Origin: an uncultured Thermotogae bacterium
Lineage (GTDB): Bacteria; Bipolaricaulota; Bipolaricaulia; UBA7950; UBA9294
Reading direction: 5' to 3'
DNA: 61,469 bases
Assembly (NCBI GenBank): GCA_964530075.1
Contig: CAZGXU010000005.1
Coordinates: 1 to 61,469 of the forward strand
The notes beneath the pieces were generated by a model. The model saw nothing but the letters and a program-made list of their open reading frames with translations. It ran no database searches and was not told the DNA's origin. The translations under genes were made by a program, and so were the position numbers. Below are positions 21,345 through 44,372 of the stretch, piece after piece (the stretch's first letter is position 1; every line of letters starts with the position of its first letter).

Positions 21345-21413
21345 GCCCGTCCTCCCTCGGCGGATGATCCGCCAATCCTAGGTTCGGGCGCCCCTCGAGG
21401 CAAGGCTCGCGCC

Positions 21414-23231: not shown

Positions 23232-23433
23232 TTCCCTCCTCCTGTCCGTGACGCCATGGGACACGGGGAGAGGCTGGATCCTGGCTGAGTCAACCGACAC
23301 TGACAGCGTGGAGTCTACGGGAGAGCTCGGATCGGATCAACCGCGCCCCGGCCTTGCGACGCCGGATGCTCGATCCCATCTCGTTCGCAGGACGCCGCCC
23401 AGCCTCCCCTTGCCGCGAAGCGAGCCCGGTGGA

Positions 23434-23580: not shown

Positions 23581-24708
23581 GTGATCGAGATGATGTTTGA
23601 ACCGAATCCGGATTTCGGGAGACTTCGCCGTACCCTACTGTGTCAGGAGCCGGACCGCGTTCCGACTGCCGAGCTGTACGTCGATCGCCCGGCGAAGGAA
23701 GGGTTCTTCGGAGAGCCGGTCGACAGTCTGTCGAAGAGTATCGAGTTCTATCGCGCGGCCGGATACGACTACTACGGGCTCCGGTTCAGCTACGCGGACG
23801 ACTTCCACGTTGGGGATTTCAGCAAGTCCGGCCGCGGCAACGCGACCTATACGAAGACCGCCTACGGAGACGAGGGAACGAGGAAGCGCCATTGGGTCAG
23901 AGGCAAAGACCACTACATCAGCACCCTGGTGGACTTCGAAGCGTTCGAGTGGCCGGTCGCGGAGACGGACAAGGTTGCCGGAGAGGCGGACATCGACGCC
24001 ATGCCCGCCGAGGAAGCGCTCGACATCGTCCGCGAGCACCTGCCGAAGGGGATGAAGGTGATCGCCTGGTGCTCGGGGATCTTCGAGTACGTGAGCTGGC
24101 TCATGGGCTTCGAGAAGTTCTGCGAGGCGCTGTACGACGATCGCGAGCTCATCGGGCGGATGTTCGAGCGGGTCGGCGGCCTGTTCGCCAGCCTGTTCGA
24201 GTACATGGCCTCGATCGACATCGTCGGGGCGCTCTGGTACGCGGACGACGTCGCCTACGCCCAGGGGCTCCTCTGGTCTCCGAACCTGATGCGCAGATAC
24301 CTGTTCCCCTGGTACGAGGAGCTCGGGTCCATCGCGCGCCGCAACGACCTGCCGCTGATCCTGCACTCGGACGGCGACCTGTCCAAGATCCTCGAGGACT
24401 ACATCGCGTTCGGGTGGAATGCGATTCAACCGGTCGAGCCGAAGGCGATGGACATCCGGGAGCTGAAGCGCCAGTACGGGAAGAAGCTCTGCTTCATCGG
24501 GAACGTCGACCTGAGCTACACGTTGACGCGTGGAACCCCCGCGGAGGTCGACGAAGAGGTGAGAGGCCTGATCCGCGACGTTGCGCCAGGCGGTGGGTTC
24601 TGCGTCGGATCGTCCAACACGATCACCGACTACGTGCCGGCGGAGAACTACCGCGCCCTGCTCGAAGCGACGTTCCGCTACGGCGAGTATCCGATCCGTC
24701 TGCCCTAG
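23581..24708 (+). CDS. URO-D/MT2-family methyltransferase paralogue 1 (lacks the His-x-Cys motif)
   Basis: 375 aa. URO-D family N-terminus (LLCQEPDRVPTAELY) and C-terminal barrel LILHSDGDLSKILEDYI...NAIQPVEP...LCFIGNVD...PGGGFCVGSSNTI. Where the other paralogues have H-[ST]-C-G-N, this one has H-S-D-G-D. Start could be ATG 23590/23593. Confidence 0.85.
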   Translation: MIEMMFEPNPDFGRLRRTLLCQEPDRVPTAELYVDRPAKEGFFGEPVDSLSKSIEFYRAAGYDYYGLRFSYADDFHVGDFSKSGRGNATYTKTAYGDEGTRKRHWVRGKDHYISTLVDFEAFEWPVAETDKVAGEADIDAMPAEEALDIVREHLPKGMKVIAWCSGIFEYVSWLMGFEKFCEALYDDRELIGRMFERVGGLFASLFEYMASIDIVGALWYADDVAYAQGLLWSPNLMRRYLFPWYEELGSIARRNDLPLILHSDGDLSKILEDYIAFGWNAIQPVEPKAMDIRELKRQYGKKLCFIGNVDLSYTLTRGTPAEVDEEVRGLIRDVAPGGGFCVGSSNTITDYVPAENYRALLEATFRYGEYPIRLP

Positions 24709-24820: not shown

Positions 24821-24842
24821 TAAACGTTTACGTAAACGTTTA
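24821..24842. promoter_or_regulatory. Perfect 22-bp palindrome: candidate LacI-family operator
   Basis: TAAACGTTTACGTAAACGTTTA equals its own reverse complement. It contains two TAAACGTTTA sub-palindromes with central CG, as in LacI/GalR operators, and sits immediately 5' of the LacI-family gene. Confidence 0.55.
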
Positions 24843-24856
24843 ACCAGGAGGGGCTC

Positions 24857-25897
24857 ATCTCCACGATCAAGGACGTCGCGAAGGACGCGGGGGTCTCCAT
24901 CGCAACCGTCTCCCACGTGGTGAACGGCACCCGACACGTCAGTGAGGAGCTGACGGAGCGCGTCCGGGAGAGCATGACCAGGCTCGACTACCACCCGGAC
25001 CGGGTCGCCCGAAGCCTGCGAACTCAGAGGACCCACTCGATCGGCCTGATCGTCTCCGATATCTCGAACCCGTTCTTCTCGGTGCTCGTCCGCGGCGCGG
25101 AGGACGCCGCGGCCGAGCGGGAGTACAGCGTCATCATCTCGAACACCGACGAGGACTTGGAGAAGGAGCGTCTCTACGTCAACGTCCTCCGTCAGCGCCG
25201 GATCGACGGCATGTTGATCGCCCCCACCGGCCAGCTCGACGAAGATCTTCAGTTCTTGACGACTTCGGGGATCCCGTTCGTCTTCGTCGATCGGAAGATC
25301 GAGGGCGTCGCGGCACCGGCTGTCCTCTCGGACAACATCGACGGTGCCTTCGCCGCGACGCGACATCTGATCGAATTCGGCCACACGAGAATTGGAATCA
25401 TCCTCGGCCTGAAGGGCGTCTCCACGAGCGAAGAGCGGTACCTCGGATACCAACAGGCGCTGCGGGCCGGGGGGTTGACCGAGGAAAGCGACCTCGTCGT
25501 CCGAGGAGATCTCCGCATCCCCGGAGGAATACGCGCTTGCAACGAGCTCCTCGATCTCACCTCGCCGCCGACGGCCATCTTCAGCTTGAACAACCTGACG
25601 GCGATCGGCGTGCTTTGCGCCATCCGGGAGCGCGGCCTGAAGTACCCGGCGGACATCTCGGTGATCAGCTTCGACAGCCCGTGGTGGATGGACCGCGTCC
25701 TGTCGCCGCGGTTGACCTACGTCCGCCAGGATCCCTACGAGATCGGACAGAGAGCGCTGAGCATGTTGATCGCGCGGATCGAGGCTGCCACTTCGCAGGA
25801 AGAGCAAGCGGCGCCGGACATCGTCCGCATCCCCACCGAGCTGATGCTGGGCGAGTCCGTGCAACTCCTTCGCGAGTCGCGGGAGGCACATGGATAA
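24857..25897 (+). CDS. LacI-family transcriptional regulator
   Basis: HTH TIKDVAKDAGVSIATVSHVVNG plus periplasmic-binding-fold sugar sensor domain (IGLIVSDISNPFF..., ...FSLNNLTAIGVL...ISVISFD). The ORF-track GTG 24917 would delete the HTH. There is no ATG/GTG/TTG between the in-frame TAA (24833-24835) and the HTH, so I place the start at ATC 24857 after CAGGAGGGG (uncertain). Confidence 0.8.
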   Translation: MSTIKDVAKDAGVSIATVSHVVNGTRHVSEELTERVRESMTRLDYHPDRVARSLRTQRTHSIGLIVSDISNPFFSVLVRGAEDAAAEREYSVIISNTDEDLEKERLYVNVLRQRRIDGMLIAPTGQLDEDLQFLTTSGIPFVFVDRKIEGVAAPAVLSDNIDGAFAATRHLIEFGHTRIGIILGLKGVSTSEERYLGYQQALRAGGLTEESDLVVRGDLRIPGGIRACNELLDLTSPPTAIFSLNNLTAIGVLCAIRERGLKYPADISVISFDSPWWMDRVLSPRLTYVRQDPYEIGQRALSMLIARIEAATSQEEQAAPDIVRIPTELMLGESVQLLRESREAHG

Positions 25898-26034
25898 AGG
25901 GAAGCAGCTTTCGGGCCTATGGAACGCCTCTCCGCTGGGTCCCGAACACGCTTCGAGGAGGTGGTAGGGGAGAGGATGACTGGGAGGATCTGAGGAGGCA
26001 CTGGCACCGACCTGGGATCTAAGGAGGCGTGAGG

Positions 26035-30177: not shown

Positions 30178-30212
30178 GCATGCTTCAGAAGGGATACGGA
30201 AAGGGTTGCACG

Positions 30213-31232
30213 ATGAACAGCAAAGAGCGCGTGATCGCGACGATCGAGTGCACCGGGCCGGATCGTCTGCCGTATCTCCCGGTCGTCGACGTCCGCCGGT
30301 TCATGCAGGATCGCCCCGAGGACGTACAGAGGGTCCTCGAAGTGATCCGGTCGGCACGAAACGACATCGTGATCGTGGAGAACAACGCTCCGCCCGGGTC
30401 GGAACCAACCTCGAGCTACCGTGCGATGGCGGAGGACGGGATCGACCAATGGGGAACGATCTGGAAGTCGGCCTACGCGTCGACGCACCCTCTCGCCGAC
30501 AACGACTTCGACCTCGACTCCTACGAGTTCCCAGATCCGAAGGCCGACGGCATCTTCCGGATCGCAGACGAGATGATGGCGGAGAACCCCGACAAGTACA
30601 TTGTGGCGCAGGTCTGGTGGACCCTGTTCGAGCGGATGCACCTCCTGCGTGGGTTCGAGAACGCGCTCATCGACTACTTGCAGTATCCGGAGAGATTCAA
30701 GCGGCTCCAGAAGATGGTCTTCGACTACGCCATGGCGCTTCTCGATCACTGGGTCGACACGGAAGTCGACGGGATCTACTTCAGCGACGACTGGGGCGAC
30801 AACAAGGACCTGCTGATCGATCCGGGCACGTGGCGGAAGCTCTGGAAGCCGCTGTACCGGGAGCTGTTCGGGCGGGTTCGAGAGGCCGGGATGCACGTGT
30901 GGCTCCACAGCTGCGGCAACGTCACGAAGATCGTTCCGGATCTGGTCGAGCTCGGGCTGAATGTGCTCAATCCGGTCCAGCCGCGCGCCCTCGACGTCGA
31001 GCGGCTTGCCAGGAAGTTCGGCGGGAAGCTCTGCTTCTACGGCGGAGTCGACTGCCAGCACACCCTGCCGCACGGCACGCCGGAGGACGTCCGCAAGGAG
31101 GTCAAGTACTACATCGACACCTTCGGACGGTTCAACGGCGGCTACATCGGCGGCGTCTCGCACACCGTCATCAGCGACGTCCCGTTGGAGAACATCGTCG
31201 CCTTGTACGAGGCGTTCGAGGAGTACTCGTAG
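30213..31232 (+). CDS. URO-D/MT2-family methyltransferase paralogue 2
   Basis: 339 aa. SKERVIATIECTGPDRLPY N-terminus, ...VWLHSCGNVTKIVPDLVELGLNVLNPVQP..., LCFYGGVDCQ. H-S-C-G-N motif present. ATG 30213 is in frame within the longer artefactual ORF 29121..31232. Confidence 0.85.
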   Translation: MNSKERVIATIECTGPDRLPYLPVVDVRRFMQDRPEDVQRVLEVIRSARNDIVIVENNAPPGSEPTSSYRAMAEDGIDQWGTIWKSAYASTHPLADNDFDLDSYEFPDPKADGIFRIADEMMAENPDKYIVAQVWWTLFERMHLLRGFENALIDYLQYPERFKRLQKMVFDYAMALLDHWVDTEVDGIYFSDDWGDNKDLLIDPGTWRKLWKPLYRELFGRVREAGMHVWLHSCGNVTKIVPDLVELGLNVLNPVQPRALDVERLARKFGGKLCFYGGVDCQHTLPHGTPEDVRKEVKYYIDTFGRFNGGYIGGVSHTVISDVPLENIVALYEAFEEYS

Positions 31233-31254
31233 ACGTGAGAAAGGCGGACGGATC

Positions 31255-32466
31255 GTGAACGCGAGGGAGCGGCTTCTGACCGTTCTTCGGCGAGACGGAA
31301 CACCCGATCGGGTCCCGTGGGCCCCTCTGATCGACGGCTACTACATGAGCGCCCGGCCGCCCGGAACCGACATCCTCGATGCGTTTCGCGAAGTCGAGGC
31401 CGACATCATGGAGCGCCACGTCTGGACCTACCGGGTCAACATGAACCTCCCGAGGGAGCCCGGGGCGATCGAGCGATTCCAGTCGGAGGGGGAGGTCACC
31501 TTCGAAGAGGAGGGCGTTGTCGTCCACCTGAAGATGGAGCCGCGTCCGAAGGGCATGCTGCTGACGAAGAGCTACGAGATTCCCGGGAGAACGCTGACCG
31601 AATCGGGGCTGTTCACCGAGCAATCGCCCTACCTCCCCTTCCCGGTCGAGCCGTTGCTCAAGTCCGTCGCAGACATGGAGGCGTACGAATATGTCATCAA
31701 GCGACGCCGGTTCGAGCCCAACTACGACGCGTTCATCCGGGAGGATGAGCGGATCGGCGCGGAGGGCATCGCGACCGACTCGGGTCTGACCTCGCCGATT
31801 CAGGAGCTGCTTCAGCATTCGATCGGCATCGAAGCCTTCTACACCACGTTCTACACCGAGCATCGTGCCGAGCTGGAATCCCTGATGAAGACGATGCACG
31901 AGAGCAACCTGCAAGCGTACGAGGTGATGGCGGACTCGCCGGCCGAGGTCGTGATCGGCTACGAGAACACGTCCACCAGCTTCATCTCCCCCGCCATCCA
32001 CAGGGAATTCGTGTCGCCCTGCATCAACGACTACGCCGACCTCCTGCACGAGAAGGACAAGATCTACCTGACCCATCGGTGCGGGACGCTCAGGGCGCTA
32101 GTCGACGCGATCCGAGACGAGCGGGACGACGGGGTGGTCGACATCAGTCCGGCGCCGACCGGCGACCTCCCGTTGTGGGAAGCGAAGGCGGCGTGGCCGG
32201 ACAAAATCGTTCTCGGGGGGTTCGACGCGACCTTTCTGACGAGTTGGACGCCGGACAGGATCCGCGACTACGCCGCGGAGATCCTCGAGAAGTCCGGTGG
32301 AATCGACCGGTTGATTCTTGGTAGCGCCGACGCCGTGCCGAAGACGGCGCGCGTCGAGAACCTCAGGGCCGTCGGTGAGTTCGTGAAGGAGCGAGCGACG
32401 GCAGAAATCGAAGGCAGGCCCGGCCCGAGCGCTGGGCGCGGAAGAAAGGACACGGAGGCAGAATGA
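31255..32466 (+). CDS. URO-D/MT2-family methyltransferase paralogue 3 (divergent)
   Basis: About 403 aa from GTG 31255. ARERLLTVLRRDGTPDRVPWAPL N-terminus, ...IYLTHRCGTLRALVDAI..., IVLGGFD. H-R-C-G in place of H-S-C-G. Basic/acidic low-complexity tail. Confidence 0.75.
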   Translation: MNARERLLTVLRRDGTPDRVPWAPLIDGYYMSARPPGTDILDAFREVEADIMERHVWTYRVNMNLPREPGAIERFQSEGEVTFEEEGVVVHLKMEPRPKGMLLTKSYEIPGRTLTESGLFTEQSPYLPFPVEPLLKSVADMEAYEYVIKRRRFEPNYDAFIREDERIGAEGIATDSGLTSPIQELLQHSIGIEAFYTTFYTEHRAELESLMKTMHESNLQAYEVMADSPAEVVIGYENTSTSFISPAIHREFVSPCINDYADLLHEKDKIYLTHRCGTLRALVDAIRDERDDGVVDISPAPTGDLPLWEAKAAWPDKIVLGGFDATFLTSWTPDRIRDYAAEILEKSGGIDRLILGSADAVPKTARVENLRAVGEFVKERATAEIEGRPGPSAGRGRKDTEAE

Positions 32467-33095
32467 GCGTACTGAAGGAAATCGGTGAGAGCGTCCTCTC
32501 GTACCAGCCGAAGAAGGCGGAGGAATTGACAAGGCGGGCCCTCGACGAAGGGAAGTCGGCGGCCGAGATCCTCAACGAGGGTCTCATCCCGGCGATGGAC
32601 ACCGTCGGCAAGAAGTACGAAGGCGGCGAGATCTACGTCCCGGAGATGCTGATGGCGGCGAAGTCGATGAAGGCGGCGCTGGCGATTCTTCGGCCGATCC
32701 TCGCGGAGACCGGGGTGGAGTCGAAGGGGAAGGTCGTGATCGGAACGGTCGAAGGCGACCTGCACGACATCGGACAGAACCTGGTCTCCATCATGCTCGA
32801 GGGCGCCGGCTACGACGTTCACAACCTGGGCATCGACAACACGGCCGACGCGTTCGTCGAAGCGGTGAAGGAGACGTCGCCCGACGTCGTGGCCATGTCT
32901 GCCCTCCTGACGACGACGATGATCCAGATGCCCGGAGTGATCGAGGGACTCAAGGAAGCCGGTCTTCGAGACGGGGTCAAGATCATCATCGGCGGCGCAC
33001 CGGTCACGGAGGAGTACGCGAATCAGATCGGCGCCGACGGCTACGCGAAGGACGCCGCGGCCGCGGTGACGTTGGTCAGGGACCTGCTCAAGTAG
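32463..33095 (+). CDS. Corrinoid protein (B12-binding, MtaC/MtbC/MtvC-like)
   Basis: 210 aa. N-terminal helical cap (B12-binding_2), then the cobalamin lower-ligand motif GTVEGDLHDIGQNLV (D-x-H-x-x-G), ...MSALLTTT..., GGAP. ATG overlaps the upstream stop (ATGA). Confidence 0.9.
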   Translation: MSVLKEIGESVLSYQPKKAEELTRRALDEGKSAAEILNEGLIPAMDTVGKKYEGGEIYVPEMLMAAKSMKAALAILRPILAETGVESKGKVVIGTVEGDLHDIGQNLVSIMLEGAGYDVHNLGIDNTADAFVEAVKETSPDVVAMSALLTTTMIQMPGVIEGLKEAGLRDGVKIIIGGAPVTEEYANQIGADGYAKDAAAAVTLVRDLLK

Positions 33096-33116
33096 GAGGA
33101 CGAGTCAGGAGGAGAC

Positions 33117-34346
33117 GTGGGCAGTTTTCCGTTGAAGGACCCGAAGCCGGACTTCGAGGCGCTCGAAGCCGTGGTGCTCGGACGGGCCGAGCCGAAGCGC
33201 GTTCACTTCGTCGAGGAGTTCGCCGACGTCGAGGTCATCGACTACATCGTACAGAACATGATGGAGGAGGACTTCCCGTCGCTCGACGAGACGTGGGCCT
33301 CCGCCGGGAGCGATTCGCACCTTCTCGCGAAGGCACAGAAGCTTCTCTCAGGCGGCGCGTTCAAAATGATCGACGGCGAGCCCGACGAGATTCGCATCAA
33401 GCGCGACATCGCCTTCTACCACCGGATGGGATTCGACTACCTCCCGGACCTCGCGCCGTGGCACATGATGTGTGCCATGTTCGGGACCCTGGCGACCGAG
33501 CAGGGATTGGCGAGTTCCTTCGAGAGTCACAGCGCTCCCGACACGGCGGACGAGAGCCTGTCCAGAGGGATGCGAAACTGGATGGAGGAGAAGATCGGCT
33601 TCGTTTCGTCCTGGGAGGACTTCGAGAGAATCCCGTGGGAGCGCGTCGACCTCGACATGCTCGGCATCGACGAGTACTACGCGTTCATGGCAAAGCACCT
33701 CCCCGACGGAATGAAAGTGACCGCGCTCGGCTGTACGTTCGGACCGGTAGTGACCACGCTCGGGTTCGAGACGATGTGCACCCTGCTCTACGAGGACCCG
33801 GACCTGGTCCGAGCCGTCGCGGAGAAGTGGGGGCGCTTAAACCTCGAGTTGTACGAACGGATGCTTTCCCACGAGTGCGTCGGCTTCGCGTGGCAGGCCG
33901 ACGACCTCGGGTACAAGACCCAGACGCTCCTCAGTCCGGCGCACCTGCGCGAGTACGTCCTTCCCTGGTTTGCACAGTACGCCGACCTCGCCCATCGCCA
34001 CGGCAAGATGCTCTGGCTCCATTCGTGCGGGAACATCTACGCAATCATGGAGGACCTGATCGAGGACGTCGGGATCGACGCGCAGCAATCGTTTCAGGAC
34101 GAGATCATGCCGATCACCGACTTCATGGACACCTACGGAGGCCGGATCGCCGGACTCGGAGGCGTGGACATGGACAAGCTCTGTCGCCTTCCGAAGCCGG
34201 AGCTGAGTGCGTATTGCCGCTCGATCCTCGACCACTGCATGCCCAAGGGCCGCTACGCCTACGGGACGGGCAACAGCGTCGCGAACTACGTCCCGCTCGA
34301 CAATTACCTTGCGATGATGGACGAGGGGTATCGGTACCGCGGATGA
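33117..34346 (+). CDS. URO-D/MT2-family methyltransferase paralogue 4
   Basis: 409 aa. C-terminal barrel LWLHSCGNIYAIMEDLIEDVGIDAQQSF...GLGGVDMDKLC...GTGNSVANYVP. First unit of a three-gene tandem array. Confidence 0.85.
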   Translation: MGSFPLKDPKPDFEALEAVVLGRAEPKRVHFVEEFADVEVIDYIVQNMMEEDFPSLDETWASAGSDSHLLAKAQKLLSGGAFKMIDGEPDEIRIKRDIAFYHRMGFDYLPDLAPWHMMCAMFGTLATEQGLASSFESHSAPDTADESLSRGMRNWMEEKIGFVSSWEDFERIPWERVDLDMLGIDEYYAFMAKHLPDGMKVTALGCTFGPVVTTLGFETMCTLLYEDPDLVRAVAEKWGRLNLELYERMLSHECVGFAWQADDLGYKTQTLLSPAHLREYVLPWFAQYADLAHRHGKMLWLHSCGNIYAIMEDLIEDVGIDAQQSFQDEIMPITDFMDTYGGRIAGLGGVDMDKLCRLPKPELSAYCRSILDHCMPKGRYAYGTGNSVANYVPLDNYLAMMDEGYRYRG

Positions 34347-34385
34347 GGGAGATCGAGCAGGCAGAATGAGAAAGGAATCGAAGGG

Positions 34386-35615
34386 ATGAGCACGTTCCCG
34401 CTGAAGGATCCGAAACCGGACTTCGAGGAACTGGAGAAGGTGCTGCTCGGACGAGCCGAGCCGAAACGCGTCCACTTCGTCGAGGAGTTCGCCGACGTCG
34501 AGGTGGTGGACTACATCGTACAGAACATGATGGAGGAGGACTTCCCTTCGCTCGACGAGACGTGGGCCTCCGCCGGGAGCGACTCGCACCTTCTGGCGAA
34601 GGTGCAGAAGTTCCTCTCCGGAAGCGCGCTGAAGCTGATCGACGGCGAACCGGACGAGATCCGCATCCGGCGCGACATCGCCTTCTACCATCGAATGGGG
34701 CTCGACTACCTCCCGGATCTCGCGCCGTGGTTTCTCATGGGCGTGTCGCTCGGCGCGCTGATGCGTCAGGCCGGTCTCTCGGGCGGCGGATCCCGAAACG
34801 CCCCGGACACAGCGGCCCAGGACGTGTCTCGAGGAGCGCGCAACTGGCAGGAGGAGACGTCGGGTCTGATTCGCTCCTGGGACGACTACGAGAAGGTCCC
34901 GTGGGATCGCGTCGACCTCGACATGCTCAACATCGACGAGTACTACCGGTTCGTCTCCGAGCACCTGCCGGACGGCATGACCGTCTCAGGCGTCGGATGC
35001 GTCTTCGATCCCGGACTCATCGGCACGTTCTTCGGGTTCGAGGACTTCTGCCTGCTCCTCTACGAGAACCCGGAGCTGATCCGCGCCGTGGCCGACCAGT
35101 GGGGACAGCTGAACCTGGAGCTCTACGAGCGGATCATGCCGCACGCGTGCGTCGGGTTCATGTGGCACGCCGACGACCTCGGCTACAAGACCCAGACGAT
35201 CATCAGCCCCGGCCATCTGCGGGAGTACGTCCTGCCGTGGCTGAAGAAGTACGCCGCCGTCGCCCATCGGCACGACAAGATGGTCTGGCTCCACTCGTGC
35301 GGGAACATCTACGCGATCATGGAGGACCTGATCGAGGACGTCCGGATCGACGCCAAGCAGTCGTTCGAGGACGCGATCCTGCCGATCACCGAGTTCATGG
35401 ACGTCTACGGGGACCGCGTCGCCGGCCTCGGCGGCGTCGACATGGACAAGCTCTGTCGGCTCGACGAGCCGGCGCTGCGAGCGTACTGCCGCTCGATCCT
35501 CGATCACTGCATGCCGAAGGGACGGTTCGCATTCGGGACGGGAAACACGGTCGCCAACTATGTCCCGATCGACAACTACCTGATCATGATGGAAGAGGGG
35601 CATCGATACCGGTAG
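34386..35615 (+). CDS. URO-D/MT2-family methyltransferase paralogue 5 (tandem duplicate of paralogue 4)
   Basis: 409 aa, same length as paralogue 4. The first ~75 residues are nearly identical, and about 34452-34609 is almost identical at nucleotide level to 33183-33340. H-S-C-G-N motif present. Confidence 0.85.
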   Translation: MSTFPLKDPKPDFEELEKVLLGRAEPKRVHFVEEFADVEVVDYIVQNMMEEDFPSLDETWASAGSDSHLLAKVQKFLSGSALKLIDGEPDEIRIRRDIAFYHRMGLDYLPDLAPWFLMGVSLGALMRQAGLSGGGSRNAPDTAAQDVSRGARNWQEETSGLIRSWDDYEKVPWDRVDLDMLNIDEYYRFVSEHLPDGMTVSGVGCVFDPGLIGTFFGFEDFCLLLYENPELIRAVADQWGQLNLELYERIMPHACVGFMWHADDLGYKTQTIISPGHLREYVLPWLKKYAAVAHRHDKMVWLHSCGNIYAIMEDLIEDVRIDAKQSFEDAILPITEFMDVYGDRVAGLGGVDMDKLCRLDEPALRAYCRSILDHCMPKGRFAFGTGNTVANYVPIDNYLIMMEEGHRYR

Positions 35616-35655
35616 GCTCCGACGGCCCGGAGGTCGGAAGAGACAGGAGGGCAGC

Positions 35656-36762
35656 ATGGACGTACCGCTGAAGCACCCGAGGCCGGACATCGACCGGTTC
35701 GTGGCCGTGATCACCGGGCGGGAGCCCCCCGATCGCGTCCGCTTTGCCGAGCTGTTCCTCGACAACGAGACGATGCAGGCCATCTCCGAAGCCTACTTGG
35801 ACCGCGAGTGGGTCGCGCCGGACCTCGCGAACCCGGCGACGTTCCTTCCCTACTTCGACAACGTGATCGAGTGCTGGTATCGGCTCGGCTACGACTACGT
35901 CTGGGCCGGCGGCTGGCAGGAGATCCTGTTCCAAGGGAAGTACCGACTGGGAAGCGACACGGCCGAACGGGCCAAAGCGACGCGCATCTGGATGGAGGAG
36001 TCGGAAGGGATCATCGGGACGTGGGAGGACTTCGAGGCCTATTCGTGGCCGGATGCCGACGCGGTGTCGCTGGCCGCCTACGAATACGCCTCGCAGCGCC
36101 TCCCCGCAGGAATGGGGATGTTCGTCTGCTTCGGTCAGGGTACGCTGGAGAACGTGATGAACGTCCTCGTCGGCCTCGAGCCGCTCTCGTACATGCTGTA
36201 CGAACAGCCGGATCTCGTCGAGGCGATCTTCGAGAAGGTCGGACAGACCTTGTATCGGTTGAGCGAGCGGATCATCGGTCTGCCGAAGCTCGCCGGCTTC
36301 TTCCAAGGCGACGACATGGGCTACCAGAGCGCGACGCTGATCTCCCCCGGCCACATCCGCAAGTACGTCCTCCCGTGGCACAAGAAGATCGCGAAGCTCG
36401 CGCACGACAACGGGCTCCTCTATATCCTCCATACCTGCGGGAACGTCGACGAGATCATGGAGGACCTGATCGAAGACGTCCGGATCGACGCCAAGCACTC
36501 CTTCCAGGACAAGATCCTCACCGTCGGAGACTTCAAGGAGAAGTACGGCGATCGGGTCGGGGTCCTCGGAGGCGTCGACGTCGACAAGATGTGCCGGTCC
36601 ACGGAAGAGGAGATCCGGCAGTACGTGCGCGAGATTCTCGATCGTTGCATGCCCGGTGGGAGGTACGCCCTCGGTACGGGAAACAGCGTCGCCAACTACA
36701 TCCCGATCGAGAACTACCTCGCGATGCTCGACGAGGGGATTCGCTGGAAACGGGGCACGTAG
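35656..36762 (+). CDS. URO-D/MT2-family methyltransferase paralogue 6
   Basis: 368 aa. LYILHTCGNVDEIMEDLIEDVRIDAKHSFQD...GGVDVDKMC...GTGNSVANYIP is clearly related to paralogues 4/5 in the C-terminal half. Has H-T-C-G-N. Confidence 0.85.
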   Translation: MDVPLKHPRPDIDRFVAVITGREPPDRVRFAELFLDNETMQAISEAYLDREWVAPDLANPATFLPYFDNVIECWYRLGYDYVWAGGWQEILFQGKYRLGSDTAERAKATRIWMEESEGIIGTWEDFEAYSWPDADAVSLAAYEYASQRLPAGMGMFVCFGQGTLENVMNVLVGLEPLSYMLYEQPDLVEAIFEKVGQTLYRLSERIIGLPKLAGFFQGDDMGYQSATLISPGHIRKYVLPWHKKIAKLAHDNGLLYILHTCGNVDEIMEDLIEDVRIDAKHSFQDKILTVGDFKEKYGDRVGVLGGVDVDKMCRSTEEEIRQYVREILDRCMPGGRYALGTGNSVANYIPIENYLAMLDEGIRWKRGT

Positions 36763-36781: not shown

Positions 36782-37858
36782 ATGATGACGGAAGGGCAGA
36801 GCAGCTTCGGCTCCGGCACGCTTCGGAGTCTGCCGCGAATCCGCAACGTGAAGCGGAGGCGCGAGTCGAGCTGGGACCGCACCGGAGCGAACAACGACTT
36901 CGTCACGATTCGGCCGGGAGAGACGCACGTCCTCGCATCGATCGAAGGCGCCGGATGCATCACGCACATCTGGACGACCCTTCGCTCCAACGACGTGAAC
37001 TACCTTCGGAACAACGTCCTGCGCGCGTATTGGGACGGCGAGAAGAACCCGAGCATCGAGGTGCCGATCGGCGACTTCTTCGGGATGGGGCACGGCCTGA
37101 CGAAGAACTTCGTCTCCGCCCCGCTCGCGATGAGTCCCGAGCACGGCAAGGGCCTCAACTGCTTCTTCGTCATGCCGTTCGCACGAGGCGCCCGGATCGA
37201 GGTGACCAACGAGAACCCCGCGGACGAGCTGATCCTCTACCACTACGTCGACTACGAGACGTTCGACGAGCTCGAGGAGGGTCTCGGACGCTTCCACGCG
37301 CAGTGGCGGCGCCAGAACCCGTGCCAGGGAATCGATCAAGGCGATATGGACAACTTCGAGTTTCAGGGGGTCTGGCACCACGCGGGCACGTCGAAGAACC
37401 TCGACGGAGCGAACAACTACGTGATCCTCGAAGCCGAAGGCCGCGGACACTACGTCGGCTGCAACCTCAACATCCGCAATCTCCGCCGGACGAACGAGTG
37501 GAACTGGTACGGAGAGGGTGACGACATGATCTTCATCGACGACGACGAGTGGCCGCCGACCCTGCATGGCACCGGGACCGAGGATTACTTCAACACCGCG
37601 TGGTGCCCGACGCAGGAGTACTGCGCCCCGTATCACGGCGTCATCCTCTCCGGTGGACCGAACTGGGCCGATCGGGTCACGCTGTACCGGTACCACATCG
37701 AGGATCCGATCCACTTCTCACAGCGGATCCGCGTGACGATCGAGCACGGACATGCCAACCACCGCTCGGACGACTACTCGAGCACCGCCTACTGGTATCA
37801 GACCGAACCTCACAAGAGATTCCCGAAGCTGCCCTCGGCCCGAAAGCGGTTGCCGTGA
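36782..37858 (+). CDS. DUF2961 / glycoside hydrolase family 172-like protein
   Basis: 358 aa. RESSWDRTGANNDF...IEGAGCITHIWTT...PIGDFFG...NCFFVMPF...YHYVDYE...WYGEGDDMIFIDD...HGTGTEDYFN...YRYHIEDPI.F matches the conserved DUF2961 blocks. Confidence 0.85.
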   Translation: MMTEGQSSFGSGTLRSLPRIRNVKRRRESSWDRTGANNDFVTIRPGETHVLASIEGAGCITHIWTTLRSNDVNYLRNNVLRAYWDGEKNPSIEVPIGDFFGMGHGLTKNFVSAPLAMSPEHGKGLNCFFVMPFARGARIEVTNENPADELILYHYVDYETFDELEEGLGRFHAQWRRQNPCQGIDQGDMDNFEFQGVWHHAGTSKNLDGANNYVILEAEGRGHYVGCNLNIRNLRRTNEWNWYGEGDDMIFIDDDEWPPTLHGTGTEDYFNTAWCPTQEYCAPYHGVILSGGPNWADRVTLYRYHIEDPIHFSQRIRVTIEHGHANHRSDDYSSTAYWYQTEPHKRFPKLPSARKRLP

Positions 37859-37895
37859 AGAGGGACGGACCGACGCGAAGAAAGGAGAACGAACG

Positions 37896-39320
37896 ATGGC
37901 CCCACGCAAGGTAGGGATCCTTACATTCTCGGACGGCAGGGTCGCGGTGCACCGCGACCTGGAGCCGCTGAACCGGAAGTACCAGAGCCGGCTCGCCGAG
38001 GCGCTCCGCGCGACCGGCGAAGTGGAGCCGGTCGAAGCGGAGGAGATCGTCTGGACCAGCGAGATCGCGAAGAAGGAGGCGATCCGACTCGCGAACGCCG
38101 GCTGCGAGCTGACGATCTTCAACTACGCCGTGTGGGCCTTCCCCCATCTTGCGGCCGTCGCGTCCCGGTTCGCCCCGGGCCCCTTCCTGCTGTTCTCCAA
38201 CATCAACCCCGAATACCCGGGGATGGTCGGGATGCTCGCTTCAGCCGGCGCCCTCGACCAGGTGGGGACGTTCCACGGCCGCGTCTCGGGCGACATCGGA
38301 GACGCCGATGTTCTTCGCCGCGTGATGGCGTTCGTCCGAGGCGCGTCGGCCGTCCGACGTCTGAAGGGCGAGACGTTCGGTCTGTTCGGAGGGCGTCCGA
38401 TGGGAATGTACACCGCGGTGGCGAACAGCGACCAGTGGATGCGGCTGTTCGGGATCGACGTCGAGCACATCGATCAATCCGAGATCGTCCGCCGCTCGGC
38501 CGAGGCGCCGGACGACGAGGTCGAGCGCGCGTTCGAGTGGTTGTCGTCGAAGGTCGGGAAGATCCGCTACGACGGGAAGCAGCTGACGCCGGAGAAGCTG
38601 AAGCTTCAGGTTCGGAGCTACATCGCGGTCCGGCAGATGATCGAGGAGATGAACCTCGACTTCGTCGGATTCAAGGCGCAGCCGGAGCTGACCGATCACT
38701 TCGTCACGATGGACGTAACCGAGGCGTTCCTGAACGACCCGTACGACTGGAACGGCCCGAAGGAGCCGATCGTCGCCGCAACGGAGGCCGACATGGACGG
38801 CGCGCTGACGATGGAGATCCTCAAGCACATCACGTCGGAGCCGGTCTTGTTCGCCGATCTGCGCCACTACGACGCGGAACTGGGGGTCTTCGACCTCTGC
38901 AATTCCGGGACCCATCCGACGTACTTCGCCGGACGCTCGACCGATCCGGACGTCAACCTGCCGAGCGTCGAGTTCTACCCGCAGGGCTTCTACTTCCCAG
39001 CCGGCGGGGCGTCGGTCCGCCACTTCGCCGCGCCGGGCGAAGTGACCCTCGCGCGGCTGGCGAGGCGAAACGGCGAGTACTGGCTGGCGATCCTCCCGGC
39101 GGAGTTCATCGAACTTCCGAAAAGGACGGCAGAGAAGAAGGCCGGCGAGGTTCAGATCGACTGGCCGCACGCTTACGCACGGTTTCGCGTCTCGCCGGAC
39201 GTCTTCCTGTCCGAGTACGACTCGAACCACATCCACGGCGCTTACGGGAATTGGGTCGAGGATCTCGTCTGGGCCGCGAAGACGCTCGGCATCGAGTACC
39301 GGATCTTCGACGACGGATGA
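37896..39320 (+). CDS. L-fucose isomerase-family sugar isomerase
   Basis: 474 aa from ATG 37896 (after AAAGGAG). KVGILTFSDGR N-terminus, ...GETFGLFGGRPMGMYT..., ATEADMDGALTM, ...FADLRHYD...DLCNSG, ...DSNHIHGAYGNW: FucI/AraA-superfamily layout. Confidence 0.8.
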   Translation: MAPRKVGILTFSDGRVAVHRDLEPLNRKYQSRLAEALRATGEVEPVEAEEIVWTSEIAKKEAIRLANAGCELTIFNYAVWAFPHLAAVASRFAPGPFLLFSNINPEYPGMVGMLASAGALDQVGTFHGRVSGDIGDADVLRRVMAFVRGASAVRRLKGETFGLFGGRPMGMYTAVANSDQWMRLFGIDVEHIDQSEIVRRSAEAPDDEVERAFEWLSSKVGKIRYDGKQLTPEKLKLQVRSYIAVRQMIEEMNLDFVGFKAQPELTDHFVTMDVTEAFLNDPYDWNGPKEPIVAATEADMDGALTMEILKHITSEPVLFADLRHYDAELGVFDLCNSGTHPTYFAGRSTDPDVNLPSVEFYPQGFYFPAGGASVRHFAAPGEVTLARLARRNGEYWLAILPAEFIELPKRTAEKKAGEVQIDWPHAYARFRVSPDVFLSEYDSNHIHGAYGNWVEDLVWAAKTLGIEYRIFDDG

Positions 39321-39330
39321 GGGAGGCCAA

Positions 39331-40920
39331 GTGACCTCACGTTATCTGCTCGGCTCTGACATCGGGACGACGCTGACGAAGACCGTCCTGGTCGATCTCG
39401 ACGGGAGAGAGGTCGCCGCGGCCCGTTCGGAGTACGGGGTTCTCCACCCGCACCCGCTGTGGGCCGAGCAGTGGCCCGACGTCTGGTTCGACGCCTTCGT
39501 GGCGACGGTCCGCGACGTGCTCGCACAGGCGAGCGTCCGACCGGACGAGATCGGGGGCGTGGGGATCAGCGGACTCTACGGAGGCTCCGGCGTCCCCGTC
39601 GATGAGAAGACGGACCCGATCCGACCGTGCATCATCTGGATGGATCGCCGCGCCGTGCAGGAGGTCGAGTGGATCCGATCGCACGTCGACCTGGACGAGC
39701 TGTTCGAGATCACCGGCAATGGCGTCGACACCTACCACGGGTTCACGAAGATCCTCTGGATCCAACGCAACGAGCCGGACAATTGGAAGAGGATTCACAA
39801 GCTCCTCACGCCGCACGGCTATGCGATCCAGCGGCTGACCGGCGAGACGGCGATCGACCAGTCGTCCGCCGGGAACATCGGCGGTGTCTTCGACCTGAAG
39901 GCGCGGACGTGGTCGGAGCGCAGCTGCGAGTCGCTCGGGATCCCCGTCGGGCTGCTGCCGGAACGGATCGTCGATTCGAGCGAGATCGTGGGAGAACTGA
40001 CGGCCGAGGCGGCTCGATTCACGGGCCTCGCTCCCGGAACGCCGGTCGTCTCCGGGGGGATCGACGCCGCGGTCGCGACGCTCAGCGCGGGTGCATTCGA
40101 CGAGGGAAACCACGTCGCGATGATCGGGACATCGATGTGCTGGGGCGTCGTCCACGAGGGAGAGTCCGTCTCCCCTCAGCTTGTCAGCATGCCCTACGTC
40201 GCCTACGCGGCGGACAAGGTTTACACGTTCGGCGGCGCGGCGACCGCCGGGGCCCTCCCACGATGGTTCCGCGACCAGTTCGGACAGCCAGAGGTCGCAC
40301 GAGGGGAGCGGGAAGGCCTCGATGCCTATGCCCTGCTGGATGAAGAGGCAGCCAGGATACCGCCCGGCTCCGATCGACTCGTCGTCCTTCCGTACTTCAT
40401 GGGCGAGCGAAGCCCGATCTGGGACAGCGACGCGAAGGGAACGATCCTCGGGCTCACGCTCTCCCACACCCGCGCGCATGTCTACCGCGCGCTGCTGGAG
40501 GGCGTCGCGTTCGCCCTCCGTCACAACATGGAGGCGGGCGAGGAGATCGGCCTCCGCCTGGACGAGACGTGCACGCTCGTCGGCGGGGCAGCCAAGTCGC
40601 CGCTCTGGCGCCAGATCCTGAGCGACGTGACCGGGTATCGCCTCGCCGCGACGCGAGGCTCGGAGGCGGCGCTCGGAGACGCCTTGCTGGCCGGGATCGG
40701 AATCGGCGCCGTCGATCGTTTCGAGTCGATCCGCGACTGGCTGACCTTCGAAGAGCCGACGACCCCGAACGCGGCGAACAGAGAGACCTACGACCGCCTG
40801 TACTCGGTGTACAAGGGCGCCTATCCGAGCCTGCGAGAGCTGATGAGTGCGCTGTCGTCGCACGACGCGACGAGGAGCGGGACGCCGGAGAGCCATGAAG
40901 CCAAGGAGGATCTGAGATGA
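39331..40920 (+). CDS. FGGY-family carbohydrate kinase (xylulokinase-like)
   Basis: 529 aa (GTG start). YLLGSDIGTTLTKTVLVD, IWMDRRA, ...GGIDAAVATLSAG..., LVGGAAKSPLWRQILSDV motifs. Confidence 0.9.
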   Translation: MTSRYLLGSDIGTTLTKTVLVDLDGREVAAARSEYGVLHPHPLWAEQWPDVWFDAFVATVRDVLAQASVRPDEIGGVGISGLYGGSGVPVDEKTDPIRPCIIWMDRRAVQEVEWIRSHVDLDELFEITGNGVDTYHGFTKILWIQRNEPDNWKRIHKLLTPHGYAIQRLTGETAIDQSSAGNIGGVFDLKARTWSERSCESLGIPVGLLPERIVDSSEIVGELTAEAARFTGLAPGTPVVSGGIDAAVATLSAGAFDEGNHVAMIGTSMCWGVVHEGESVSPQLVSMPYVAYAADKVYTFGGAATAGALPRWFRDQFGQPEVARGEREGLDAYALLDEEAARIPPGSDRLVVLPYFMGERSPIWDSDAKGTILGLTLSHTRAHVYRALLEGVAFALRHNMEAGEEIGLRLDETCTLVGGAAKSPLWRQILSDVTGYRLAATRGSEAALGDALLAGIGIGAVDRFESIRDWLTFEEPTTPNAANRETYDRLYSVYKGAYPSLRELMSALSSHDATRSGTPESHEAKEDLR

Positions 40921-42479: not shown

Positions 42480-44372
42480 ATGCCCATCTCGATCTACGCG
42501 CAGGCTCCGGGCCCCGTCCACCACGCGGCACACAAGCTGTCGGACCACACCGGGATTCCGTTGGGAACGGACGATGAGGGTGGTCAGCCGCTGCAAATCG
42601 AGCGGAACGTGGAGCGAGATCCGGCGATCTCCGAGCAGGGCTACGTCATCCGAACGGGCGACGATGGAACCCTCCGGATCTCGGGAAACGACGACGAGGG
42701 CGTCGCCAACGGGGTCTACACCCTATTGCGGACCCTGATGGTCGAGCATCGCACCGATCCGTTCTCGCGAACGTGGGAGATCGTGGAGACGCCCCAGTTT
42801 CGGATTCGAGGGATGTACGTCGCTCCCTATCGGTTCGGGGGCTCGTACGGTTTCGCCGTCCTCAGCCCGGATCGTTGGTCGCTCGACGAGTGGATCGAAT
42901 ACATCGACCTGATGCGCCTCTGCAATCAGACGACGCTGACCCTCGTCCCCGCCGGGCGCCTCTACCATCCTGACGTGCCGCAGACGGAGAGAGAAGCCTG
43001 GCGCTACGAGGTCTGGCGGAACGTAATGGCCTACTGCCACCAGGTCGGGATGAAGTTCAACTGGCTCACCACGCCGAACTACGTCCCCCCGCAGACCTTC
43101 TGGGAGAACCCGTCGCTCCGCGCCGAGCATCAGGAGGTAGGCGGCTACTACGGTTGCGGCCTCGTCTGGAACAAGGCGAAGGACCTGATCCTCGACGTCA
43201 ACCGATACACCTTCGAGTACTTCAAGGAGCTCGACGGGCTGGAGATGATCTACAGCGAGACCGGCCTCTCGTTCGACGAGGAGACGGCCGCTGATCCGGC
43301 CGGCTACTTCGCCGACGCGACCCACGCGTACCGCAAGCTCCTGCGAGAGTGCGGGAACGACGCCGATTACATCTTCTGGAACTGGGTCTTCGACCTGTGG
43401 TCCCGCGTGGTGATTCCGCAAGCGCTTCTCGAGCGGTGTCCGAAGTTCCGGACCATCCTCGACGACCTCCTCCCGCTTCTCCCCAAGGACATCGGCTGGA
43501 CGGACGCGTCGATGCTCAGCGTGGCGCAGATGTTCGGACCCGAGATCCGTGCGCGCGGGAATCCGGCGATGAGAGAGGGTGTCCTGCTCGGGAAGAAGTG
43601 GGGGTTCGATCCGGTGATCAACTGCTTCTGGTACATGAACCCCGAGTACGCACTGAACATGCTCCCGCACCCCTATCTCACAAGAGCCGTCCAAGAGGCG
43701 GCCTATTCGAGGGACGAGCTCCGTCCGGACGGCGTCCAAGGGTATCGGCTCGCCCCACCCTGCCGGTTCCTCGGGGACTACACCTTCTTCCGTCTCGCCT
43801 TCAATCCGTCTCTAGCGCAGGAGGAGTTGATCGAGGAGATGGCGTCGCTTCTCTGCGAGGAGCCCGTCCATCGAGCCGCCGTCGCCGAAGGGATCGGCCT
43901 CCTGGAGGCGTTCTGGCTCGATCACGATCCGCAGCTCCTCGAGCGGGCCGAGAGCCTCTTTGCCGAGGCGGTGAAGGCCGAGCCGTCGAAGCACCTCGCC
44001 CGCGTCGGCGGAGGGACGACCTTCCTCCTCCACATCGTGCGGATGGCACAGCCGAACGTCTCTCCGGAGGCGCGAAAGGCGATGCGCTGGGAGCTCTACC
44101 GGATCCTGAAGACGCTCGACGTCTTCCAAGGAATCACGTCGAACATCGTCTGGCAGCCGGAGTCGTACGCATTCTTCTGCTGGCAGGTCGATCTGATGGT
44201 GCGACAATACGAGTGGTTCCGAGCGAGCCGCCCGGACCGGATCGACCGAAACATCTATCCGGAAGCAACGGCCGACTTCGCGGCACTTCGATGGCCCGAG
44301 GACATCGACACGCCGGACCCGTCCACGGACCGCCCGCGGGGCGAGATGCCCGGGCCGCTCACCTATGATTAA
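42480..44372 (+). CDS. Hypothetical cytoplasmic glycoside-hydrolase-like protein (paralogue 2)
   Basis: 630 aa. GYVIRTGDDGTLRISGNDDEGVANGVYTLL N-domain, then a barrel-like core. Collinear with 21414..23231 (shared blocks W..DEW..YIDL, H..GMK.N, CW.KAKD, GYRLAPP.RFL.D..F.R.A.NP). No signal peptide. Confidence 0.5.
   Translation: MPISIYAQAPGPVHHAAHKLSDHTGIPLGTDDEGGQPLQIERNVERDPAISEQGYVIRTGDDGTLRISGNDDEGVANGVYTLLRTLMVEHRTDPFSRTWEIVETPQFRIRGMYVAPYRFGGSYGFAVLSPDRWSLDEWIEYIDLMRLCNQTTLTLVPAGRLYHPDVPQTEREAWRYEVWRNVMAYCHQVGMKFNWLTTPNYVPPQTFWENPSLRAEHQEVGGYYGCGLVWNKAKDLILDVNRYTFEYFKELDGLEMIYSETGLSFDEETAADPAGYFADATHAYRKLLRECGNDADYIFWNWVFDLWSRVVIPQALLERCPKFRTILDDLLPLLPKDIGWTDASMLSVAQMFGPEIRARGNPAMREGVLLGKKWGFDPVINCFWYMNPEYALNMLPHPYLTRAVQEAAYSRDELRPDGVQGYRLAPPCRFLGDYTFFRLAFNPSLAQEELIEEMASLLCEEPVHRAAVAEGIGLLEAFWLDHDPQLLERAESLFAEAVKAEPSKHLARVGGGTTFLLHIVRMAQPNVSPEARKAMRWELYRILKTLDVFQGITSNIVWQPESYAFFCWQVDLMVRQYEWFRASRPDRIDRNIYPEATADFAALRWPEDIDTPDPSTDRPRGEMPGPLTYD

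Follow-up and report, generated by a model that had tools for sequence, protein, structure and literature searches.

The window analysed here, a stretch of 61,469 nucleotides from an uncultured bacterium of the phylum Bipolaricaulota (contig CAZGXU010000005.1, assembly GCA_964530075.1), contains six genes of the uroporphyrinogen decarboxylase (URO-D) fold and, among them, a single gene for a corrinoid protein, all embedded in a string of genes for sugar import and sugar catabolism. On balance, we consider it probable that this locus serves the anaerobic, corrinoid-dependent O-demethylation of methylated sugars, and that the methyl groups are passed to tetrahydrofolate and from there into the Wood-Ljungdahl pathway. 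The more specific proposal is that the URO-D paralogues represent the first corrinoid-dependent carbohydrate O-demethylases, i.e. a set of methyl-ether:Co(I) methyltransferases, each specific for a sugar or a position, in which a metal site other than that of MtaA (His-Cys-Asn, His-Cys-His or His-Cys-Asp) activates an alkyl methyl ether; we regard it as a serious possibility that falls a little short of probable. The window corresponds to contig C5 of a genome bin of 2.02 Mb (84.7% complete), and near-identical DNA is present in salt-marsh metagenomes. The names of its homologues point to Candidatus Bipolaricaulota. Reading frames were chosen by the G+C content of third codon positions (the G+C content of the window is 62-70%) and then scanned against Pfam and NCBIfam. 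For comparison, we used two metagenome-assembled genomes (MAGs) of other Bipolaricaulota species (L003 and L004) and one complete Bipolaricaulota chromosome (L001).

A methyl-transfer gene set within a string of sugar genes

All four component types of an anaerobic O-demethylase are found within 18 kb, and from its genes the locus is predicted to encode a complete corrinoid-dependent methyl-transfer system of this kind. The substrate-side methyltransferase (MT I) is represented by members of the UroD superfamily; the model of paralogue 4 lies nearest to MtaA and to uroporphyrinogen decarboxylase (UROD). The carrier is a small corrinoid protein (CP) of 210 aa (32463..33095, plus strand), which has a cap domain (Pfam B12-binding_2, 3.1e-22), a Rossmann-type B12-binding domain (1.2e-27) and the cobalt-ligand motif DxHxxG in the form DLHDIG; its match to TIGR02370 (1.3e-61) reaches 207 bits, just below the cut-off of 215 bits. 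The candidate for the second methyltransferase (MT II), which would transfer the methyl group from the methyl-corrinoid to tetrahydrofolate, is a pterin-binding protein on the minus strand (20547..21344; Pfam Pterin_bind 3.2e-26 at 20547-21377). It is located directly upstream of an ATP-dependent reductive activator (AE) of the RACo/RACE type with a 2Fe-2S domain, which is encoded on the same strand (18671..20506, 611 aa; Pfam RACo_C_ter 9.5e-70, Raco_middle 4.4e-53, Fer2 2e-13). These two genes follow a glycoside hydrolase (GH)-like protein of 628 aa (21414..23300), the first gene of this divergent minus-strand operon.

The plus-strand string begins with URO-D paralogue 1 (23581..24708, 375 aa), a LacI-family sugar regulator (24836..25897; Pfam LacI, Peripla_BP_1/3) and an ABC importer consisting of a family-5 solute-binding protein (26029-27978; SBP_bac_5 3.6e-59) and two permeases (28065-29048 and 29062-30177; BPD_transp_1, OppC_N). 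Next come paralogue 2 (30213..31232, 339 aa, in the frame of the open reading frame (ORF) 29121-31232), paralogue 3 (31255..32466, 403 aa), the corrinoid protein, and paralogues 4 (33117..34346, 409 aa), 5 (34386..35615, 409 aa) and 6 (35656..36762, 368 aa). The string continues with a GH172 (DUF2961) glycoside hydrolase (36782..37858; 1.3e-89), an L-fucose-isomerase-like (FucI-like) sugar isomerase (37752..39320; Pfam Fucose_iso_C, N1, N2) and an FGGY-family sugar kinase (39331..40920; FGGY_N 5e-60, FGGY_C 1e-33), and beyond the kinase with a second isomerase-like protein, a second GH-like protein (42480..44372, 630 aa) and more sugar genes. In the methyltransferase block the intergenic gaps measure 19-40 nt, and the stop codon of paralogue 3 overlaps the start codon of the corrinoid protein (ATGA). 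The entire gene order is repeated in L003 and L004, where orthologues are 82-95% identical and subject to purifying selection. A preliminary description of this DNA had listed the six URO-D-fold genes and the single corrinoid-protein gene among them, and the open reading frames and family matches confirm both the genes and their positions. Its functional interpretation is borne out in part; it did not extend to the pterin-binding MT II, to RACo or to the surrounding sugar genes, which together indicate the purpose of the system.

In the rest of the genome there is one further URO-D-like gene (contig C18, 29% identity to paralogue 2) and one further corrinoid protein (C19, 58% identity). A second pair of pterin-binding methyltransferase and RACo genes adjoins the gene for AcsB, the acetyl-CoA synthase, on contig C48 and presumably represents the Wood-Ljungdahl set; because the genome has AcsB, a sink for methyl groups is present. 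That one corrinoid carrier is shared by the panel had been suggested before and agrees with the presence of a single corrinoid protein amid several substrate-side methyltransferases. About 25 kb from the main locus, the same contig of L003 holds a second URO-D/ABC locus (L006) with a LacI regulator, a family-5 ABC importer and a GH172-like gene, whose URO-D genes are relatives of paralogues 2, 3 and 5 at 60-63% identity. No corrinoid gene was found between the URO-D genes of this second locus, which fits a shared carrier encoded by the main locus.

According to the model that we propose, a methylated oligosaccharide or sugar would be imported by the family-5 ABC system, and the imported glycan would be trimmed by cytoplasmic glycosidases, i.e. 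the GH172 protein and the two GH-like proteins. The URO-D-fold paralogues would act as MT I enzymes, each for a particular methylated sugar or ring position: their metal or acid site would polarise the ether oxygen, Co(I) of the carrier would attack the methyl group, and the O-methyl group would be moved onto the single corrinoid protein. What the analysis shows is which genes are present, their fold, the conserved locus and its recurring neighbours in other phyla; methyl transfer as such, its direction and a sugar methyl ether as the donor we infer. The pterin-binding MT II would hand the methyl group to tetrahydrofolate, thus regenerating Co(I) and producing methyl-tetrahydrofolate for the Wood-Ljungdahl and MetVF one-carbon metabolism of the organism, and RACo would restore by reduction any carrier in which the cobalt has become Co(II) through oxidation. 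The demethylated sugar would proceed to the FucI-like isomerase and then to the FGGY kinase, so that the system as a whole would form part of a LacI-controlled operon for sugar import and catabolism.

The arrangement of MT I, CP, MT II and AE is known from the Odm, Vdm, Mtv, Mto and Cdm systems (PMC13222342), and as the known layout for aryl methyl ethers it also suits another explanation, namely a conventional panel of O-demethylases for methoxylated aromatics. Plant phenolic glycosides, such as those of methoxylated flavonoids or monolignols, would then be imported and deglycosylated, and the aglycone would be demethylated. Acetogens with many parallel MT I genes are on record; for Acetobacterium dehalogenans 26 systems are reported, and parallel MT I genes with shared carriers are ordinary in such organisms (PMC13222342). 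The salt marsh is moreover rich in plant material, and the organism has the Wood-Ljungdahl pathway. We nevertheless consider an aromatic panel distinctly unlikely, given the recurrent gene neighbours and the sequence relationships of the six proteins described in the following two sections.

Association with fucose catabolism in other phyla

The family to which paralogues 4-6 belong is large: 424 cluster representatives (at 50% identity) are retrieved at E<=1e-30, and 3382 at E<=1e-10. Its members are distributed over Spirochaetota, Aerophobetes, Bathyarchaeia, Clostridia, Verrucomicrobiota, Planctomycetota, Chloroflexota, Jordarchaeia and other groups. We tallied the Pfam families of 242 ORFs located within 4.5 kb of such relatives at about 40 loci from other phyla. 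The most frequent neighbours are further URO-D genes (13), Alpha_L_fucosidase (11) and GHL6 (11), and the list continues with sugar-binding proteins, sugar ABC components, GH42M, FucI, FGGY, LacI, GH35 and B12-binding. One recurrent operon has the order GH29 fucosidase, SDR gene, two URO-D genes, GHL6/GH42M, FucI and LacI. Across phyla, it is GH29 fucosidases, GHL6, fucose isomerase and FGGY kinase that recur near these genes and not aromatic-ring enzymes, which speaks against a panel for methoxylated aromatics. In a batch of 120 ORFs near the relatives of paralogues 4-6, three ORFs belong to the MTTB family of methyltransferases (trimethylamine/glycine-betaine type) and five to the Cyclase family.

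The link with corrinoid proteins is likewise found outside the Bipolaricaulota. Members of the family have a corrinoid protein and/or RACo as a neighbour in Bacillota (L019), Clostridia (L026), Chloroflexi (L063), Spirochaetota (L056), Bathyarchaeota (L009) and, at three loci, Jordarchaeia (L040, L050 and L053). The clostridial and the chloroflexal locus also carry GH172, so that the three-way association of the window is repeated in distant phyla. In three genomes with the fucosidase-type operon, the single corrinoid gene is situated in a locus with the order LacI, FGGY, corrinoid protein, URO-D.

Based on the association with GH29, FucI and FGGY, our best guess for the substrate is an O-methylated 6-deoxyhexose, e.g. 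methyl-fucose. 4-O-methyl-glucuronate and 2-O-methyl-xylose are possible alternatives.

Fold, metal site and history of the paralogues

The AlphaFold2 (AF2) model of paralogue 4, built from an alignment of 95 sequences, has a pLDDT of 96.1. Its best fold match in the PDB is MtaA (4ay7; Foldseek E 1e-11, TM 0.61/0.72, identity about 13%), followed by uroporphyrinogen decarboxylases and then MetE. At the sequence level the relationship is much more distant. A PDB search with the single sequence of paralogue 4 gave no match, and the profile of paralogues 4-6 retrieved only 4ay7 (E 0.024), with HsCGN aligned to LHICGN of MtaA. Pfam PF01208 matches paralogue 1 (3.8e-20) and paralogues 3 to 6 (2.5e-13, 2.8e-13, 2e-12 and 1.1e-16, respectively). 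The NCBIfam MtaA/CmuA models match all six proteins; for paralogue 2 the values are 7.8e-15 (MtaA_Meth) and 6.9e-14 (mtaA_cmuA), both far under the cut-off. The HemE model TIGR01464 matches paralogue 2 alone, with 16.6 bits against a cut-off of 303. In every case, i.e. with paralogue 2, the paralogue-1 profile and the 4-6 profile, MtaA outscores CdmB, and CdmB was not found in the search with the 4-6 profile up to E 1. No clear sequence tie to the clade of aromatic O-demethylases and haloalkane MT I proteins (OdmB, VdmB, MtvB, MtoB, CdmB) was thus obtained for the six proteins, and their position away from this characterised clade is a second point against the aromatic panel.

The strand that carries zinc ligands in MtaA-type enzymes had been described as HSDGD in paralogue 1, HSCGN in paralogues 2, 4 and 5, HRCGT in paralogue 3 and HTCGN in paralogue 6, and all of these motifs are present. 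When paralogue 2 and the paralogue-1 profile are aligned to 4ay7, and the paralogues to each other, His-x-Cys is seen to be kept in paralogues 2-6, and paralogue 1 has His-x-Asp. The third zinc ligand of MtaA, the Cys of the motif PGCGI, aligns to an invariant Asn in paralogues 1 and 4-6, to His in paralogue 2 and to Asp in paralogue 3. The resulting triads are His-Asp-Asn (1), His-Cys-His (2), His-Cys-Asp (3) and His-Cys-Asn (4, 5 and 6), so that the expectation of MtaA-like zinc ligands fails in all six copies. Across 82 related loci the URO-D triads are His-Cys-Asn, His-Cys-His, His-Asp-Asn, His-Cys-Asp and similar. In MtaB, zinc polarises methanol; by our proposal, the site composed of His, Cys or Asp, and Asn, His or Asp would bind a metal that, as a Lewis acid, activates the ether oxygen. 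Further invariant polar residues include D142, T143, R153, E158, D262 and D263, and paralogue 3 is without the DD motif that the other five proteins have. Cys374, which is invariant in the 4-6 family, was considered as a third zinc ligand and set aside: according to the model topology, helix 360-377 carries it at its C-terminal end, shortly ahead of strand beta8, and it therefore appears to point to the non-catalytic end of the barrel.

Several observations weigh against sugar O-demethylation by these proteins. As a leaving group, a sugar alkoxide is far inferior to a phenolate, and the chemistry would therefore be harder than in the known O-demethylases. The proteins are remote from characterised methyltransferases: with paralogue 2 and the 4-6 profile, MtaA (4ay7) reaches only E 0.013-0.024, for CdmB (9rui) the values are E 0.07 (paralogue 2) and 1.9e-5 (paralogue-1 profile), and the models for MtaA, MtbA and CmuA (TIGR01463, NF040654, NF041608) yield 17-55 bits compared with cut-offs of 235-600. 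The MtaA-type triad His-Cys-Cys was not found in any URO-D copy of the 82 loci, and by this measure all six copies of the window are incomplete. At most of the distant loci of the 4-6 family, no corrinoid gene lies closer than 4.5 kb. All 20 of the 20 genomes examined with relatives encode a stand-alone corrinoid protein of about 210 aa; yet B12-binding_2 also matches in 9 of 14 control genomes, due to MetH, and because of this the co-occurrence at genome level is weak evidence. Finally, none of the RNA-seq runs that were searched contains the locus.

Some of these observations would be expected if some or all of the paralogues formed a new catalytic class with sugars or sugar phosphates as direct substrates, e.g. 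by decarboxylation, isomerisation or hydrolysis, and if only one or two of them (paralogues 2 and 3, which flank the corrinoid gene) used the B12 protein. The lack of a nearby corrinoid gene at most distant loci and the invariant Asn at the position of the third Cys ligand of MtaA favour such a class, as does the fact that the founder of the superfamily, UROD, is a cofactor-free decarboxylase; further support comes from the relatives of paralogue 1. On the other hand, paralogues 4-6 directly follow the corrinoid gene in a tight string, both here and in the two sister species, a corrinoid protein and RACo are found next to their relatives in five or more further phyla, and HxCGN aligns to LHICGN of MtaA. 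Taken together, we regard a largely corrinoid-independent panel as rather unlikely.

Paralogue 1 had been said to have lost the Cys and to be possibly different in mechanism. It does have Asp in place of Cys, but the loss is no singular event: FHSDG is invariant in 72 relatives, and the Asp is consequently a trait of the subfamily and not a lesion. The relatives adjoin a PfkB-family kinase in all three distant loci examined (L083, L084 and L085), without a corrinoid gene nearby. These loci come from Planctomycetes and two other MAGs, and two of them include transaldolase or transketolase genes. Paralogue 1 does differ from the other copies, and it may have another, corrinoid-independent role in sugar-phosphate metabolism.

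With regard to substrate specificity, the preliminary description had pointed to a strongly diverged stretch of paralogues 4 and 5 as a candidate recognition element. This paralogue-specific segment comprises residues 111-140 (33447..33536 in paralogue 4; about 34716-34802 in paralogue 5), where the paralogues share 44-57% of their nucleotides and 32-47% of their amino acids, with a dN of 0.4-0.6. In the model it follows strand beta2 (residues 107-110) as part of the beta2-beta3 extension, with a helix (113-128) and a loop of lower pLDDT, and is succeeded by a hairpin bearing the invariant residues D142, T143, R153, W155 and E158. Among orthologues the segment is under strong purifying selection (dN/dS 0-0.13), and for paralogue 4 the comparison between the window and L003 reveals no non-synonymous change at all. 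Being stable within each orthologue group, it represents a fixed paralogue-specific feature, as expected of a specificity determinant. In the solved structure of the MT I CdmB, the substrate tunnel as well as the dimer interface are built from the extensions between strands one to three (PMC13222342); by analogy, the position of the segment supports the idea of substrate recognition, and a role as specificity element is plausible.

The description of the six genes as a six-fold expansion, with a suggested recent duplication in paralogues 4 and 5, is not upheld. Paralogues 1, 2, 3 and the 4-6 group constitute four old subfamilies with a mutual identity of 20-31%. Within the last group, paralogues 4 and 5 are 74% identical, and paralogue 6 is 44% identical to both. 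In the phylogenetic tree, the paralogue 4 sequences come together in a well-supported, long-stemmed clade, located beside paralogue-5-type sequences in a clade of 409-aa proteins centred on the Bipolaricaulota. Paralogue 6 is found on a separate long branch, and its nearest relatives, at 47-55% identity, belong to fucosidase/FucI operons in other phyla. The matrix of identities, the comparison of orthologues and the tree thus rule out a recent triplication: only paralogues 4 and 5 go back to a duplication at the level of the lineage, which predates the three related species. The regular spacing that had been reported for the array has no significance beyond the dimensions of two genes. The starts of paralogues 4, 5 and 6 are indeed 1269 and 1270 bp apart, because paralogues 4 and 5 are equally long (1230 bp, and 409 aa each as had been noted) and are followed by spacers of 39 and 40 nt; paralogue 6, however, is 41 aa shorter, and a period of three units does not exist.

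The 5' part of paralogues 4 and 5 has a history of its own. Between 33183-33340 and 34452-34609, which had been called almost identical, 147 of 158 positions agree (93%), so that the wording was slightly generous; over the full patch (33177..33340 in paralogue 4 and 34446-34609 in paralogue 5) the nucleotide identity is 93-95%. The variable segment and the central part of the genes group by paralogue, with nucleotide identities of 0.80-0.91 between orthologues compared with 0.55-0.75 between paralogues, whereas in residues 21-75 paralogues 4 and 5 of this genome are as similar to each other (0.93) as orthologues are. Within the patch dS amounts to 0.29 here, to about 0.7 in the same patch of L003 and L004, and to at least 0.76 elsewhere. 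From the low dS of the patch and the grouping by paralogue elsewhere, it follows from the sequence comparison that the patch is a product of local gene conversion; of the two origins that had been suggested for it, recent duplication is thereby dismissed.

That the array might be an artefact of assembly, or a collapsed repeat, had been raised as a concern. It is excluded by the synteny in L003 and L004 and by independent Logan contigs, which span the junctions from 4 to 5 and from 5 to 6 at even depth and break at the patch shared by paralogues 4 and 5 only. One Logan contig (run X3) passes from 33278 in paralogue 4 to 34548 in paralogue 5 by way of the conversion patch, so that exactly 1269 bp are left out; its source is either a strain that has one hybrid gene or a path that the assembler took across the repeat. 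An apparent fusion of paralogues 5 and 6 in L004 (about 12300-12400) was rejected, as the ORF of 825 aa contains a run of N in the record. In L001 (bin446 chromosome CP070725.1), positions 9105-11689 hold an intact paralogue-5-type gene between two fragments, i.e. a truncated or frame-broken paralogue-4-type gene and a paralogue-6-type fragment of 143 aa; the neighbours are housekeeping genes, no corrinoid gene is near, and the region looks like a decaying remnant of the array.

Accessory genes and relation to known demethylases

The two GH-like proteins share 34% identity. Neither has a match to a Pfam catalytic domain, and the protein at 21414-23300 matches no entry of Pfam and NCBIfam. The AF2 model of the protein at 42480-44372 (pLDDT 90) is nearest in fold to GH138, GH20, GH67, GH84 and GH115 (E 1e-14 to 1e-11, TM about 0.5). 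The predicted fold consists of a GH20b-like N-terminal domain, a TIM barrel and a helical bundle, and the nearest structures include GH138, a family linked to rhamnogalacturonan II (RG-II). About 110 homologues were found, mostly without names. Homology of the GH-like proteins of the window to the GHL6/GH42M protein of the fucosidase-type operons was not found. The two paralogues may represent an unclassified glycoside hydrolase family.

As for regulation, two tandem TAAACGTTTA palindromes at 24821..24842 are a candidate for a LacI-type operator (2 matches, against 0.03 expected by chance). They are adjacent and perfect, and are located just upstream of the LacI frame and downstream of a TTGACA at about 24791; no further copies of TAAACGTTTA were found in the window with one mismatch allowed. 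A scan of the window against Rfam, cobalamin riboswitches included, gave no match, and signals in a promoter and terminator scan were not above chance level.

The component set of the window is that of the corrinoid O-demethylases, i.e. OdmB/VdmB of Acetobacterium dehalogenans, MtvB of Moorella thermoacetica, the Dhaf O-demethylase and the archaeal MtoABCD system. In both cases the expected destination of the methyl group is tetrahydrofolate and the Wood-Ljungdahl pathway, and several MT I genes occur per organism (PMC13222342). The known enzymes, however, act on aryl methyl ethers, whereas the MT I genes of the window are embedded in an operon with LacI, ABC importer, glycosidase, isomerase and kinase genes; their subfamilies are uncharacterised, accompany fucosidase and fucose-catabolic genes across phyla, and have a marginal sequence tie to the O-demethylase clade. 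The CdmBCA system of A. dehalogenans (PDB 9rui; PMC13222342) resembles the window in that a corrinoid protein and an MT II of the pterin type accompany an MT I of the UroD fold, and neither CdmB nor the proteins of the window have the MtaA-type zinc site. In CdmB the substrate path is formed by the extensions between barrel strands one to three, which is also where the paralogue-specific segment of the window proteins lies. In contrast to CdmB, which accepts haloalkanes through a hydrophobic tunnel and has no metal, the proteins of the window possess the invariant His-x-Cys/Asp with Asn, His or Asp and many polar invariants.

MtaA and MtbA (4ay7; TIGR01463) are the best structural match and have HxCGN in common with the window proteins, but their third zinc-ligand Cys is replaced in the copies of the window. 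Unlike the setting of MtaA and MtbA, that of the window is a bacterium with a tetrahydrofolate methyltransferase next door and without any sign of a coenzyme M context. Since MtaA-type enzymes carry a methyl group from the corrinoid to an acceptor, transfer in the biosynthetic direction, onto sugars or thiols, has to be weighed as well, as does a role in methyl-sulfur or methyl-selenium metabolism like that proposed for the type 1 mlp clusters. Those clusters occur in many anaerobes and combine several UroD-superfamily genes with a corrinoid protein and RACE/RACo, as in the window (Kountz and Balskus, PMC10418091). They are, however, devoid of a tetrahydrofolate methyltransferase, their proposed function lies in methyl-sulfur or methyl-selenide metabolism (PMC10418091), and Mlp proteins are about 30% identical to coenzyme M methyltransferases; the locus of the window has an adjacent Pterin_bind methyltransferase, and the identity to MtaA in the fold search is about 13%. 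The setting of importer, glycosidases, isomerase, kinase and LacI regulator is moreover catabolic, and the transfer of a methyl group from methyl-tetrahydrofolate to an alcohol oxygen is, by established chemistry, thermodynamically unfavourable. We therefore judge a biosynthetic or mlp-like role to be highly improbable.

A full-text literature search for corrinoid- or cobalamin-dependent demethylation of sugars retrieved no report. To our knowledge, the only sugar demethylase described so far is a cytochrome P450, which needs oxygen. This 6-O-methyl-D-galactose demethylase of marine Bacteroidetes was reportedly characterised by Reisky et al. in 2018. It would be a functional analogue of the system proposed here, as it removes an O-methyl group from a sugar for catabolism and is encoded in a glycan-utilisation locus. 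However, the P450 enzyme is an oxygen-dependent monooxygenase of an unrelated family that releases formaldehyde and uses no corrinoid, whereas the system of the window would act without oxygen and conserve the methyl group as methyl-tetrahydrofolate.

Methylated sugars, among them O-methyl-fucose, -rhamnose, -xylose and -galactose as well as 4-O-methyl-glucuronate, are constituents of plant, algal and microbial glycans, and the methyl group blocks ordinary sugar catabolism. The locus is an unusually complete and self-contained candidate for its removal: the importer and the glycosidases, six candidate MT I proteins with a carrier, the candidate methyltransferase for folate, the activator, and the enzymes for further use of the sugar appear to be combined in one regulon. 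As all components can be expressed from one locus, the hypothesis is directly testable. If it is correct, anaerobes would be able to unblock methylated fucose-type sugars for glycolysis and at the same time to harvest their methyl groups for acetogenesis. Sugar methyl ethers would then be a new substrate class for B12-dependent methyl transfer and a new methyl source for acetogenesis, and a large unannotated branch of the URO-D superfamily would gain a function. Given the hundreds to thousands of 50%-identity clusters in bacterial and archaeal phyla, this would amount to a widespread and so far unrecognised step in the turnover of glycans in anoxic environments.

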